The notes beneath the pieces are model-generated. The model worked only from the letters and a program-made list of their open reading frames with translations. It did not search any database and had not been told where the DNA came from. A stretch of DNA of 44,487 nt, taken from the sequence record SRR20825006_443; one strand, written 5' to 3'. Below, one piece after another: positions 23,477-27,589 of this stretch. Position 1 is the stretch's first letter, and each line of letters begins with the position of its first letter. A program made the translations under genes and the position numbers.

Positions 23477-23986
23477 ATGCCTTTGAAGACAGATCGAATC
23501 CTGGTTGACAGCAACCGCCGCATAAAACGCAAAAAGAGCATCCGCGCTGGAACGGCCGGTGCTTTCATTTTATTCGGCGCTGTCATAGTCGCGGGCCTCG
23601 CACCACCACGTCAGGCGCACGCCGAATTTCGCGTCTGCAACGACACGGCCAATCTGGTCGGCGTCGCGGTCGGCTACCGTGATCGTGATGGATGGATTTC
23701 TGAAGGGTGGTGGCAACTGCCGGCCACGACCTGCGCAACGGTCGTCCCCGGCCCCTTGAAATCACGCTATTACTACCTCTACGCCGAAGATGCATCCGGA
23801 AGCGGGCGCTGGACCGGCTACACCAATATGTGCGTTGCCGAAGACGAATTCAAAATCGTTGGCATCGATGACTGCTTCGTACGCGGTTACCAACAGATGG
23901 GTTTTAGCGAATACGACACAGGGCGGGAAGAAAGCTGGACGGTCCAGCTCTCGGACAAGCCCAGCACCCAAGAGAGTCAGAACTGA
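23477..23986 (+). CDS. DUF1036 family exported protein
   Basis: Signal ending AHA followed by FRVCN, WISEGWW, YYLYAED and GFSEYDTG. Start uncertain (23453 or 23477). Confidence 0.78.
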   Translation: MPLKTDRILVDSNRRIKRKKSIRAGTAGAFILFGAVIVAGLAPPRQAHAEFRVCNDTANLVGVAVGYRDRDGWISEGWWQLPATTCATVVPGPLKSRYYYLYAEDASGSGRWTGYTNMCVAEDEFKIVGIDDCFVRGYQQMGFSEYDTGREESWTVQLSDKPSTQESQN

Positions 23987-25425
23987 TGAGACGTTATAGA
24001 AAAGTAAAAATTCTCGCCACACTTGGTCCCGCCTCGTCGGAGGAAGAGCAGATCCAGGCACTCCATGAAGCAGGCGCCGACCTCTTCCGCATTAATATGA
24101 GCCATGCCAGCCACGACGTGATGCGCACGCTGATCAAGCGTATCCGTAATGTCGAAGCGCGTTGTGGACGCCCTATCGGCGTTCTGTGCGATCTTCAGGG
24201 GCCCAAACTTCGGGTCGGCAAGTTTATGGACGGCAAGGTCGAACTTGAGCTTGGCCAGACATTCACGCTTGATGACAACGAAGAACCGGGTAATGAAAAG
24301 CGCGTATTTCTGCCGCACCCGGAAATTCTGCAGTCGGTTCAGCCAGGTCACCGCCTGCTGATCGACGACGGAAAGCTACAATTGCGGGCGGAAAAATGTG
24401 ACGGAAAAAGCATTGAGTGTACTGTTATCGCTGGCACTACGATTTCCGACCGCAAGGGCGTCTCGCTGCCCGATACGCTGCTCGGCGTCGGTGCCTTGAC
24501 GGAAAAGGACCGCGCTGACCTGGATGCTGTCCTGGAAACCGGCGATGCCGACTGGATCGCTCTTTCCTTCGTTCAGCGGCCTGATGACCTTGCTGAAGTC
24601 CGCAAGATTGCCCGCGGTCAGGTTGGCCTTATGTCGAAGATCGAAAAGCCGCAGGCTATCGAACGAATCGACGAAATCATCGAAATGAGTGACGCTTTGA
24701 TGGTCGCCCGTGGTGACCTCGGCGTCGAGATGCCGCTGGAAGCTGTTCCCGGCCTGCAGAAAAAGCTCATCCGCGCCTGCCGTGCCGCAGGCAAGCCGGT
24801 CGTTGTTGCAACGCAGATGCTGGAATCGATGATCACCTCGCCGGTCCCGACCCGTGCCGAAGTTTCCGACGTCGCCACTGCCGTTTTCGAAGGCGCAGAT
24901 GCCGTTATGCTGTCAGCCGAATCGGCTGCCGGTCAGTATCCGGTCGAAGCCGTAAAAACCATGGCCTCGGTTGCCCGCACGATCGAACACGAGAACCTTT
25001 ATCCCAACATCCTCCATGCCCAGCGTCCGCAGCCGGAAGCAACGGGTGCCGACGCCATCTCACTGGCTTCGCGTGAAATCGCCGAAACGCTGAAGCTCTC
25101 CGCCCTGGTCTGCTACACCGCATCCGGTACGACCGGCCTGCGCGCAGCGCGCGAACGCCCGAATGTTCCGATCATCGCGCTTTCGCCCGTTGTAAAGACA
25201 GCGCGCCGTCTTTCCGTGGTCTGGGGGCTGCACTGTGTGGTTGCCGATGAACCGACCGACCTCGACAGCATGGTCGATGGCGCCTGCCGCATCGTTGTTG
25301 ACGAGGAATATGGCAAACCGGGTGACCGGATCATCATTTCCGCCGGTGTTCCTTTGGGCACACCTGGCGCAACCAATATGCTGCGGATTGCCTATATCGG
25401 CATGGATGGCCGCTCCGGCGTCTGA
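23986..25425 (+). CDS. pyk: Pyruvate kinase
   Basis: KILATLGPAS, FRINMSH, DLQGPKLR, KIE, MVARGDLGVE, ATQMLESM, PTRAEVSD, MLSAESA. Confidence 0.97.
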   Translation: MRRYRKVKILATLGPASSEEEQIQALHEAGADLFRINMSHASHDVMRTLIKRIRNVEARCGRPIGVLCDLQGPKLRVGKFMDGKVELELGQTFTLDDNEEPGNEKRVFLPHPEILQSVQPGHRLLIDDGKLQLRAEKCDGKSIECTVIAGTTISDRKGVSLPDTLLGVGALTEKDRADLDAVLETGDADWIALSFVQRPDDLAEVRKIARGQVGLMSKIEKPQAIERIDEIIEMSDALMVARGDLGVEMPLEAVPGLQKKLIRACRAAGKPVVVATQMLESMITSPVPTRAEVSDVATAVFEGADAVMLSAESAAGQYPVEAVKTMASVARTIEHENLYPNILHAQRPQPEATGADAISLASREIAETLKLSALVCYTASGTTGLRAARERPNVPIIALSPVVKTARRLSVVWGLHCVVADEPTDLDSMVDGACRIVVDEEYGKPGDRIIISAGVPLGTPGATNMLRIAYIGMDGRSGV

Positions 25426-25443
25426 TGCAGACAACATATGTTG

Positions 25444-25471
25444 AAAAAGGCGGCCACAGGCCGCCTTTTTT
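25444..25471. terminator. Bidirectional intrinsic terminator between pyk and yhhQ
   Basis: AAAAAGGCGGCC-aca-GGCCGCCTTTTTT. Confidence 0.85.
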
Positions 25472-25544
25472 ATATAAGTCAAAGCCCGGAAAGCATCACC
25501 TGACCGGGCCTTTTCAGTTCTCTCGTGAATGCGACAAGAGCGCT

Positions 25545-26186
25545 TCAGATTGTCCGGTCGACCGGGCGCATCGGCTTCAGAATGCTCATCAGCGCGCCAT
25601 AGGGCAGAAGCATGATCAGGCTGAAGGCCAGCTTCACCGACAGGTCACCAAGCCCCCAGGAGATCCAACGCGGAACGTCCAGCACCGGAAACACACCAAA
25701 AAGCGGTGCAACACCAAGTGCGAACGCATCATTCGGGCCGATAAAAGCAAAGATTGCGGCAAAACTGATCGAAAAGAACAGCACCGTATCCAGAATCGAG
25801 CCACAGAACGAACCGACCAGCGGCGCTTTCCACCAGCTTTGGCGGCGCAGATGATTGAAAAGCGTCACATCGAGCAACTGCCCAACCAGAAAGGCCGTGC
25901 CTGAAGCAATCGCGATTCGCGGCACAGACGCATAGAAGGAAAATGCAACGCCAATCGCAAAGCCAACGAAAACCACTTTGCGGGCCGCAGAAGGTCCAAA
26001 CTGGCGGTTGGTCAGGTCATTGACGAGGAAGGCAAGTGGATAGGTAAAGGCGCCCCATGTCAAAAGATCCGCGAGAGAAACACCATAAAGGCTTCCCTGA
26101 ACAGGATATTGAACAAGAATGTTTGAGGCGAGAACAACACCTGCCATCAGCAGGCTGTAAATGAGAACAGACGATGACTGTCGCAT
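25545..26186 (-). CDS. yhhQ: Queuosine precursor (preQ0/preQ1) transporter, VUT/YhhQ family
   Basis: VLASNILVQ, TWGAFTYPLAFLVNDL, AFLVGQLLDV.LF..LR, DTVLFFSISF and GDLSVK. ATG at 26186. Confidence 0.85.
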   Translation of the reverse strand: MRQSSSVLIYSLLMAGVVLASNILVQYPVQGSLYGVSLADLLTWGAFTYPLAFLVNDLTNRQFGPSAARKVVFVGFAIGVAFSFYASVPRIAIASGTAFLVGQLLDVTLFNHLRRQSWWKAPLVGSFCGSILDTVLFFSISFAAIFAFIGPNDAFALGVAPLFGVFPVLDVPRWISWGLGDLSVKLAFSLIMLLPYGALMSILKPMRPVDRTI

Positions 26187-26212
26187 TTTTTTATCCTGGG
26201 TTATGCCACCAG
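26183..26212 (-). ncRNA. Candidate preQ1 class I-like riboswitch overlapping the yhhQ SD and start codon
   Basis: CUGG-U-GGCAUAA-C-CCAG-GAUAAAAAA-AUGC: short stem, U...AAC loop, A-rich tail, and loop GCAU complementary to AUGC. Directly upstream of a preQ transporter. Confidence 0.55.
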
Positions 26213-26221
26213 CGGCGTTAG

Positions 26222-26257
26222 AAACAGAAAGAGCCATTCCGCAAGGCGGACGGCTCT
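26222..26257 (-). terminator. Intrinsic terminator after rpmB
   Basis: Minus strand AGAGCCGTCCGC-ctt-GCGGAATGGCTCT followed by TTCTGTTT. Confidence 0.7.
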
Positions 26258-26283
26258 CCCAGACGATTTATTTGCCTTGAAAA

Positions 26284-26580
26284 TCAGGCAGCGGCGTTTT
26301 CAGCCGTCTTCTTGATGATTTCCTTGCGCAGGATTCGGGCGCGGGAAGAAAGCTCATTGTCGCTTGCCTTCAGGAGAAAAGCATCAAGTCCACCACGGTG
26401 CTCAACCGAACGCAGCGCAGCTGCAGAAACCCGGAGCTTGTAGCTCAGGCCCGTTACTTCGGACATCAGCGTAACGCGGCAAAGGTTCGGGAGAAACTTG
26501 CGGCGGGTCTTGTTGTTGGCGTGGCTGACATTGTTGCCGGACAGCACGCCCTTACCAGTCAATTCACACGTGCGGGACAT
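26284..26580 (-). CDS. rpmB: 50S ribosomal protein L28
   Basis: [10 protein letters not shown]...[19 protein letters not shown]...GGLDAFL. Confidence 0.97.
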
Positions 26581-26671
26581 GATTTCACCTATTCTCGTCT
26601 TCAGCCAACGGCCCTCAACGGGACAACCAAATCCCGCGATCCAATTGGCAGATAATTGGAAAGTTGCGGTT

Positions 26672-26700
26672 CTATAGTCTCATGCCCGGTGGAGGTCAAG
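26672..26700 (-). promoter_or_regulatory. Sigma70 promoter of rpmB
   Basis: Minus strand CTTGAC-N17-CTATAG, matching the rhizobial RpoD consensus CTTGAC-N17-CTATAT. Confidence 0.75.
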
Positions 26701-26785
26701 GCAAAGGTCCGTTTTTTCGCGAAGCGCATATAAATTCGCGCTGTTTTTTTATTTCCCTGTTAGGGGTACAGTTTAGCAACAATGT

Positions 26786-27589
26786 ATGTTCATGCCGATT
26801 CAGGATAGCCAGATGCGTAAAACCGCCATTTATTGTATGACCGTGCTCTTGATGTATCTGGCCGGAACCTCGGCTGCCAGTGCTGAGGATATCAGCCAGG
26901 AGACGGTCTATACGCTTTCGTTTTCCGGGATACGAATTGCCAATGCCGCTTTCAACACGACCTTGAAGGACGGGAAATATACCATCGCTGCCGATATCAA
27001 GGCCGCCGGGATCGGTAATCTTTTCTCCGATATCGACGTCGATGTGAAAGCCGAAGGCATCTGGAAGAACAACACACCGGAAACCCGGCAGTTCACGCTG
27101 AAATACCGCGATGGCGACTATGCCCGCGATTATGCGGCGACCTTTTCCCGCAATCGCGTCACAAGTACCGAAATCATCCCCGAACGAGGCAGCTATGGTC
27201 CGGACTGGGTCGAGGTCGAATCACGCCACCTGCGCAATGTGATCGATCCGGTTTCCGCACTTCTGCTGCCTGCTTCGGATAATCCCTGCTATGGCTCCAT
27301 CGCGATCTTCGACGGTGAAACCCGGCTTGACCTGCAACTGGCTCCCGTTGGTAGCCGTCCGTTTTCCACCACCGGTTTTTCCGGCCGTGCCATCGGATGT
27401 GCCGTTCGCTTTCAGCCTATCGCCGGATATGAGCGCAAGGATGACGATATTGAATATCTCGCCAACACCCGTGAACTGGTCATCTGGTTTGCGTTAAACG
27501 ACGAACTGAACGTGTTTGCACCCGTTATGGCCAAAATTCCTCTGAAAATCGGGGAGCTGACGATTTACGCCTCGAAGTTCGGCGTTTGA
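26786..27589 (+). CDS. DUF3108 family exported protein
   Basis: Signal ending ASA, IDPVSA, IFDGETR, C.VRFQPIAG and a beta-rich pattern. Start 26786, 26792 or 26813. Confidence 0.7.
   Translation: MFMPIQDSQMRKTAIYCMTVLLMYLAGTSAASAEDISQETVYTLSFSGIRIANAAFNTTLKDGKYTIAADIKAAGIGNLFSDIDVDVKAEGIWKNNTPETRQFTLKYRDGDYARDYAATFSRNRVTSTEIIPERGSYGPDWVEVESRHLRNVIDPVSALLLPASDNPCYGSIAIFDGETRLDLQLAPVGSRPFSTTGFSGRAIGCAVRFQPIAGYERKDDDIEYLANTRELVIWFALNDELNVFAPVMAKIPLKIGELTIYASKFGV

Follow-up and report, generated by a model that had tools for sequence, protein, structure and literature searches.

We identified a compact RNA element that ends in the start codon of yhhQ, a putative queuosine-precursor transporter gene, and that is likely to be a ligand-responsive switch of the class I preQ1 type. 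The element lies on the minus strand of the window, which is the whole 44,487-nt (44.5-kb) stretch of DNA analyzed here. We also lean, by a little, toward regarding it as an undescribed fourth subtype of class I that is confined to the rhizobial family. In this putative subtype the start codon would serve as a strand of the pseudoknot, the Shine-Dalgarno sequence (SD) would be split between the stem P1 and the tail L3, and a strand reading AUGGA would act as an SD in some orthologs and as a start codon in others. The ligand, the fold and the direction of regulation are those that we infer from sequence and from comparison with solved aptamers.

The element and its distribution

Positions 26212 to 26183, read 5' to 3' on the minus strand directly from the letters of the window, are CTGGTGGCATAACCCAGGATAAAAAAATGC, which is exactly the arrangement of stem, loop, tail and AUG-C that the first-pass annotation had described. 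The two strands of P1, CUGG (26209..26212) and CCAG (26196..26199), would form a 4-bp stem around the loop UGGCAUAAC, and the last G of the 5' strand would give the G-C pair that we propose as the floor of the ligand pocket. The loop opens with a single L1 uridine (26208), the equivalent of U6, which would read the edge of the ligand if it plays the role given to that residue in PMC11625349. It continues with GGCAU (26203..26207), made up of G7 and the P2 5' strand G8-C9-A10-U11, and closes with the L2 segment AAC (26200..26202), in which C26200 is a candidate for the specificity base and would pair with preQ1. The L3 tail GAUAAAAAA (26187..26195) contains six adenines that would line the minor groove of P1, the last of them reading the ligand. 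The P2 3' strand, AUGC (26183..26186), combines the start codon of yhhQ with the base that opens codon 2. The sole SD-like word ahead of that AUG is AGGA (26194..26197), located 7 nt 5' of it and divided equally between P1 and L3; the overlap of this word with the 3' strand of P1, also claimed earlier, is present at 26197..26194.

The candidate regulated gene, yhhQ (25545..26186, minus strand), is an ORF of 213 aa opened by the AUG at 26186..26184. Its assignment as a putative preQ0/preQ1 transporter agrees with the earlier claim that a preQ transporter lies downstream: the product scores 88.9 bits against the NCBIfam model TIGR00697 ('queuosine precursor transporter'; cut-off 50.95) and also passes the Pfam model Vut_1 (PF02592). 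The N-termini of YhhQ proteins from relatives align from this same AUG. A longer in-frame ORF, starting at 26237, would run through the element; the residues it adds are not conserved in relatives. The 5' neighbor on the same strand is rpmB, encoding ribosomal protein L28 (26284..26580, minus strand; PF00830). A strong, terminator-like hairpin with a U-rich tail (26221..26258, minus strand) follows rpmB and ends 9 nt before the aptamer; it is present, at approximately 26258..26221, in the minimum free energy (MFE) fold of 26290..26160, and a simple terminator scan made no call at this position. Two rows of a relaxed Rfam scan, mir-46 and RsaE, were discarded as chance matches to this hairpin. 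When the MFE fold is computed over the wider region, an upstream UCUGGG pairs with the P1 3' strand of the window copy. A scan for sigma-70 promoter-like sites returned none between 25400 and 26800, and a sigma-54 reading was set aside because no -12 element could be seen by eye. With up to three mismatches allowed, a degenerate pattern describing the element has one occurrence in the 44.5-kb window, and it is absent from all of 100 dinucleotide-preserving shuffles.

We collected 80 yhhQ loci related to that of the window, all from named genomes, the closest being from Martelella mangrovi with 87% protein identity. By regular-expression scan, the window and 62 of these loci have the element directly at the start of yhhQ, with ATG as its last bases. 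At one locus (L079) the element region is cut by a contig end, and at 17 loci the element is absent; these belong to Roseibium, Pannonibacter, Stappiaceae, Kaistia, Prosthecomicrobium, Pseudoxanthobacter, Breoghania, Cohaesibacter and some metagenome-assembled genomes. Among 60 gap-free instances, the element, 29 nt long, has a mean pairwise identity of 92.6%, compared with 30.9% for the 29 nt on its 5' side, 38.9% for the opening 29 nt of the coding sequence, and 57.6% for a stretch coding for transmembrane sequence. The 29-nt element is a sharp phylogenetic footprint. At 77 of 81 loci rpmB lies directly 5' of yhhQ on the same strand, and the distance from the rpmB stop codon to the element ranges from 27 to 167 nt, with a median of 88.

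To follow the element more widely we used a covariance model, R1, built from 63 sequences with only the P1 pairing encoded. In a sample of 151 genomes from the GTDB family to which the Martelella genome belongs, R1 had matches in 134 at E<=0.01, with essentially one match in each; this tally includes one unpublished genome (G231). Two of the family matches are partial, at 25.5 bits, and one of these, which is the only match in its genome (G216), resembles a false positive in coding sequence. In an order-wide sample, strong matches were found in only 4 of 151 genomes. Matches below approximately 26 bits in that sample are false, an example being L093, located inside a coding sequence that reads GGITQHIG. 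Seventeen family genomes had no R1 match. Six of these are no larger than 1.5 Mb, one (G223) fell outside the search that followed, and the ten larger ones were searched with the YhhQ protein. Four of the ten carry divergent copies of the element that R1 had missed (L141, L142, L145, L147), in two the yhhQ gene lacks the element (L144, L146), and in the remaining four no yhhQ was found with the query used.

The class I pocket positions (the closing G-C pair, U6, the specificity C and the A-run) are invariant in an alignment of 86 sequences, from which L142 was omitted on account of an insert and in which the P2 columns of L019 and L118 are displaced by one. All 86 have the L1 uridine and a cytosine immediately 5' of the P1 3' strand, and the CAU of the loop is likewise invariant. 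Of 83 instances, 67 have AC ahead of the P1 3' strand, 10 have UC and 6 have CC, and 64 of the 83 have GAUAAAAAA as their tail. A run of four to nine adenines directly precedes the P2 3' strand in 87 of 87 instances. A plain strong ribosome-binding site, too, would be expected to conserve the AUG, AGGA and A-run. The first-pass annotation had proposed aligning relatives and looking for covariation; the alignment shows stem, U, C, A-tail and loop-CAU/AUG conserved across the family, and compensatory changes appear both in P1 and in the pair between the loop and position +4.

Relation to known preQ1 riboswitches

At the gathering threshold, Rfam gave no match in the whole window. The preQ1-I model, RF00522, had been suggested for use at a relaxed threshold, and this check divided: the window copy had no match at E<=10 in scans of 221 nt or 53 nt, and the Mesorhizobium ortholog was aligned end to end at 19.6 bits, the best RF00522 match in its genome. 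In a 71-nt scan the ortholog was the sole Rfam match (E 0.021), with UGGUUC, the specificity C, CCCA and UAAAAAA falling on conserved positions of the model. Over five related genomes RF00522 found the element in only one (G003); its matches in G001 and G002 (L083, L084) and a second match in G004 (L085) were rejected as unrelated A-rich sites. Because these scores are below the RF00522 gathering threshold of 39 bits, the element is no member of the family by Rfam's operational test. By its architecture, as read from sequence, the element would be a divergent class I preQ1 aptamer, and it would expose a blind spot in the RF00522 threshold.

Type III, for which McCown et al. 2014 is reportedly the source of the definition, resembles the element in many respects. 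Both stand before the same gene, yhhQ, and the predicted H-type pseudoknot of the element would share with type III a short G-C-rich P1, a single-nucleotide L1 (U6), a 3-nt L2 ending in AC, and a U11-A ceiling over the pocket. Four to six conserved adenines precede P2, and the L3 linker is variable, as seen in L142 and L145.

The features common to all class I types are a specificity C just 5' of the P1 3' strand, which pairs Watson-Crick with preQ1, U6 in L1, the last adenine of L3, the closing G-C pair of P1 as floor, contacts of L3 adenine amino groups in the P1 groove, and the P2 pseudoknot (PMC11625349). The Escherichia coli type III aptamer (PDB 8fza; PMC11625349) controls yhhQ and has a 1-nt L1 (U6) and a 3-nt L2 (PMC10622847). 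Its P2 pairs are U11-A28, C10-G29 and C9-G30, and it forms the triples U7-A27-preQ1 and C8-A28-U11, in it, A13 contacts U11 and C14 is the specificity base; 4-5 conserved adenines stand before P2, a linker of variable length joins them to P1, and the first P1 pair is unformed in the crystal (PMC10622847). Given the U-A ceiling, 1-nt L1 and 3-nt L2 of this solved structure, two of the caveats first attached to the window copy, namely a loop one nucleotide short and a pocket lacking the usual G-C cap, fall away. The loop of the Mesorhizobium ortholog, UUCCAUUAC, follows the nine-position layout of the E. coli type III loop, including U7, C8, A13 and C14, in a mapping deduced from the residue numbers of the paper. 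Its P2 would comprise U11-A, A10-U and C9-G, compared with C10 and an AGG strand in E. coli, which amounts to a compensated difference at the middle pair.

The element also departs from type III. Its P2 3' strand is AUG(N) rather than AGG(A), with A10 in the loop in place of C10; the AUG strand is the start codon in the window and in most relatives, and the SD lies at the junction of P1 and L3. The window type has G7-G8 in place of U7-C8, together with a predicted 4-bp Watson-Crick P2, and its G at position 7 sets it apart from type I as well, where the base is U as in type III. Among the sequence marks of type III, the AC before the P1 3' strand is present in the window (AAC). The UU after the P1 5' strand and the pyrimidine-rich loop are absent there (UG, UGGCAUAAC), as is an AAGG(A) SD serving as P2 3' strand (AUGC); the UU is found in 40 of 87 instances, those with a UCCAU-type loop. 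Finally, type III has been described almost solely from Gammaproteobacteria (PMC10622847), and the element is alphaproteobacterial.

Type II (Thermoanaerobacter tengcongensis, Bacillus subtilis queC; RF00522) has, like the element, AC before the P1 3' strand and an A-rich L3, and the two would also have in common a single ligand site, to judge from the architecture, and control of translation through P2 (PMC11625349). In type II, however, P1 has 5 bp, the ceiling pair is G-C, both L1 and L2 are longer, and no more than the first two bases of the SD are buried. The rhizobial family does contain a type II-like copy, located before a queC-like gene of Aureimonas (L082, 18.4 bits), and it is clearly distinct from the yhhQ element. 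The preQ1-II, SAM/SAH and NAD+-II riboswitches, whose ligand-bound core likewise includes bases of the ribosome-binding site, are similar in that aptamer and expression platform form one short RNA (PMC10622847, PMC11625349), but the part that they bury is the SD. The words 'start codon' occur nowhere in the texts of PMC10622847 and PMC11625349, and the available portions of both contain no description of a start codon as a pseudoknot strand. According to Barrick and Breaker (2007, PMC2258182), preQ1 riboswitches are found in few groups only and sporadically in gamma-Proteobacteria. The literature inspected on preQ1 in Alphaproteobacteria, Rhizobiales or meliloti, or together with yhhQ, did not yield the element, and that on preQ1 riboswitches with a start codon and a pseudoknot yielded only an unrelated review of viral RNA structure; the data of McCown et al. 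2014 may include a few alphaproteobacterial sequences.

The same fold and OFF logic could serve another physiological ligand, either preQ0 (7-cyano-7-deazaguanine) or some other 7-deazaguanine, and the gene content of relatives bears directly on this. All five related genomes contain queF and tgt, and only two, Mesorhizobium and Aureimonas, contain a full-length queC; in the genomes of Martelella (the closest relative), Pseudorhizobium and Rhizobium, QueC was seen only as N-terminal matches of ~25 bits within larger proteins. With no full-length queC, these three would depend on an imported precursor, and, as they keep queF, the expected import is preQ0. YhhQ has indeed been reported to import preQ0 over preQ1 (PMC10622847 citing Zallot 2017; PMC5372724), and both the G at position 7 and the P2 strand are unlike those of every solved aptamer. 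However, every ligand-reading position of the solved class I aptamers is kept, the E. coli type III aptamer before yhhQ prefers preQ1 ~138-fold (PMC10622847), and an RNA that senses preQ1, which QueF produces, would still reflect how much precursor is imported. We regard a ligand other than preQ1 as unlikely.

Sensing of preQ1, the reading that we prefer, agrees with the usual logic of preQ1 switches on transporters, in which an importer is repressed by its product (PMC11625349). Queuosine matters for symbiosis in Sinorhizobium meliloti, and queC and queF mutants of this species are rescued by 300 nM preQ1 (PMC3568095), which shows that uptake exists in the rhizobial family. In relatives without queC, the switch may set the queuosine supply.

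Pairing, covariation and the AUG strand

The 86-sequence alignment contains 81 distinct rows; P1 (CUGG/CCAG) is paired in 100% of them, with an invariant closing G-C. Two rows (L119, L147) have C-G as the second pair in place of the U-A of the other 79, a compensatory change. At the fourth P2 pair, between loop position 8 and base +4, 32 rows have G:C and 11 have C:G, one of these 11 being an artefact of the misaligned L118, and in the other 38 rows the bases do not pair. We also counted loop types directly on 87 instances. All 37 GGCAU-type loops have C at +4 and their AUG in the yhhQ frame. All 10 GCCAU-type loops have G at +4, and in 7 of them the AUG is out of the yhhQ frame. The 40 UCCAU-type loops, whose AUG is always in frame, have at +4 A (25), U (8), C (6) or G (1), so that the fourth P2 pair is unpaired in 39 of the 40. 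These counts indicate that G7 always accompanies a Watson-Crick 8:+4 pair and U7 a free C8, which resembles the triple of E. coli type III. Within the GGCAU class, the C at +4 is kept across 10 different second codons (Gln, Pro, Arg, Leu). The covariation exceeds that in all 500 column shuffles and in all slid registers, a shuffle control that ignores relatedness. CAU and AUG are complementary in all instances, and six of the eight pairs (three of four in P1 and three of four in P2) never vary, so the covariation rests on two pairs; the number of independent events, judging from the alignment, is probably few.

Of the 87 instances, 79 have their AUG in the yhhQ frame, and in 78 of these L3 contributes a purine-rich SD, L117 being the exception. 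L3 begins with G in 77 of the 78, and in the other one (L141) it reads AGGAAAAAA, with AGGA as the SD; the outcome is an AGG(A) SD at the junction of P1 and L3. In eight GCCAU-type instances L3 starts with C and there is no SD at the junction. These eight include all seven instances with an out-of-frame AUG (L062, L063, L116, L121, L133, L142, L145), where the start in the yhhQ frame was located by eye 6-10 nt 3' of the GGA in AUGGA. In these seven, an Aureimonas-like subgroup, the GGA would be a normally spaced SD sequestered in P2, like the SD of type III; the AUGGA strand appears to act as an SD in 7-8 of 87 relatives. In L116 and L133 the AUG opens a frame of just two codons (AUG GAA UGA). 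Since the AUG strand is retained even when it is out of frame, it is conserved as RNA. These comparisons support the earlier reading, with one extension to its proposal that the pseudoknot pairs with the AUG itself: the strand is kept throughout, but it is not the start codon in the 7 of 87 instances where the AUG is out of frame and GGA would serve as the SD.

These data also bear on the idea of an initiation region that works without any ligand, in which a hairpin protects or positions an A-rich SD leader and gives a fixed, perhaps low, level of yhhQ translation from the rpmB transcript. An SD, an A-run and an AUG are ordinary features of ribosome binding, most of the pairs are invariant and hence silent on structure, and the window copy has no Rfam match. 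However, such a region leaves unexplained the invariance of U6, of C9-A10-U11 and of the C before the P1 3' strand, and it does not predict that base +4 would track loop position 8 across 10 second codons, that AUGGA would be kept where the AUG is out of frame, that a change in P1 would be compensated, or that RF00522 would align the Mesorhizobium copy from end to end. We consider this reading highly improbable. That a transcription factor uses CTGG-N9-CCAG as a DNA operator, or that a small RNA or protein targets the RNA, as a short, single-copy palindrome at the start of a gene might suggest, is scarcely credible given half-sites of only 4 bp, conservation that runs asymmetrically through the loop and A-tail to the AUG, a covarying base inside the coding region, no promoter-like site in 25400-26800, and rpmB-element gaps of 27-41 nt in some relatives, which leave little room for a repressible promoter.

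A proposed translational switch

The reading that we favor is a translational OFF riboswitch with the class I preQ1 fold, an H-type pseudoknot, controlling the importer YhhQ. The ligand, preQ1 and possibly also preQ0, would be stacked in the pocket, with the G-C pair that closes P1 on one side and the U11-A pair that starts P2 on the other, where it would be read by C26200 through Watson-Crick pairing, by U26208, and by the last A of the tail. Binding would lock GCAU of the loop to AUGC, which comprises the start codon and the base after it. The AGGA SD would be half inside P1, its remainder opening the tail that lies in the groove of P1. With AUGC and AGGA both engaged, the ribosome landing site would be buried between about -13 and +4. 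When no ligand is bound, the A-rich leader and the weak hairpin would leave the site open to the ribosome. The switch probably acts within the rpmB-yhhQ transcript, at translation, because the spacers between rpmB and the aptamer are as short as 27, 32 and 41 nt in some relatives.

If a fourth subtype is indeed represented here, its 29-30 nt, start codon included, would make it the most compact natural riboswitch, and it would show that the start codon, instead of the SD, can be the expression platform of a tiny aptamer. AUGGA would then be an SD in the Aureimonas-like types and a start codon in the Rhizobium, Agrobacterium, Mesorhizobium, Hoeflea and Martelella types, and the orthologous series would record a ribosome-binding site migrating through an aptamer with the switch kept. 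The element would also extend preQ1 sensing by riboswitch to a major family of Alphaproteobacteria that includes plant symbionts and soil bacteria, in which the Rfam model finds none at its curated cut-off.

Two further features of the copies concern their dimensions. P1 has only 4 bp in most of them. The linker part of L3 tolerates changes in length: L142 has an insert of 31 nt and L145 an L3 of 13 nt, and in both the additional sequence lies 5' of the A-run.

Two class I forms in one family

Besides the preQ1-I-like element before yhhQ, the gene for the queuosine-precursor transporter, Aureimonas altamirensis carries a second, type II-like element at positions 1501-1540 of locus L082, the same place as locus L137 and just before the L137 match at 1501. 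Its sequence, CCGGUCGCAGCCUACCCGGACAAAACAAGGA, resembles the type II aptamer of T. tengcongensis, and an ORF of the QueC family (186 bits) starts 7 nt after it. With the Rfam preQ1-I model, RF00522, this element scores 18.4 bits, so that it too falls below the 39-bit cut-off; therefore, two distinct sub-threshold class I forms are found within the family.

The core of the yhhQ element, CTGGTGGCATTACCCAG (26201-26215 in the window), can also encode GGITQ, and a spurious upstream ORF of the window runs through the element as AAGGITQDKK. The weak matches of our RNA model, built from the family's yhhQ elements, were rejected: at about 24-25 bits (for example, L093), they lie inside coding sequence reading GGITQHIG, presumably that of translation factor IF2. 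We take the GGITQ shared by the element core and this coding sequence to be a coincidence.

Variation and alternative pairing at the yhhQ element

At two loci, L116 and L133, the AUG of the pseudoknot opens a two-codon frame, AUG GAA UGA, within the 14 nt that follow the A-run. The UGA stop overlaps an AUG in the yhhQ frame, and another AUG in that frame lies 6 nt past the GGA. Judged from sequence, the short frame could be a mini-uORF, or it could simply be the strand that bears the SD. A third locus, L142 (1300-1425), has a 31-nt insert in L3, between the 3' strand of P1 and the A-run.

When the wider region is folded to its minimum free energy, UCUGGG immediately 5' of the rpmB hairpin pairs with CCCAGG of the P1 3' strand (26258-26262 with 26196-26200), and this predicted pairing could be a competing helix for that strand.

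Gene neighborhood and precursor supply

The genes rpmB and yhhQ are adjacent on one strand in 77 of 81 loci (25545-26580 in the window). This conserved adjacency reaches well outside the element-bearing clade, for instance to Roseibium and Stappiaceae, where almost no sequence separates the two genes.

In the genomes of three rhizobial relatives (G001, G002 and G005), a search for queC found no full-length gene, just N-terminal matches of about 25 bits within longer proteins; queF and tgt are both present in all three. The gene content suggests that these relatives live on salvaged preQ0 or preQ1.

Downstream, a 479-aa ORF on the plus strand (23986-25425), which from its sequence we take to be pyruvate kinase, converges on yhhQ. 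Between the two lies a hairpin (about 25445-25475) that is rich in GC, has A- and T-runs on its flanks, and could terminate both.
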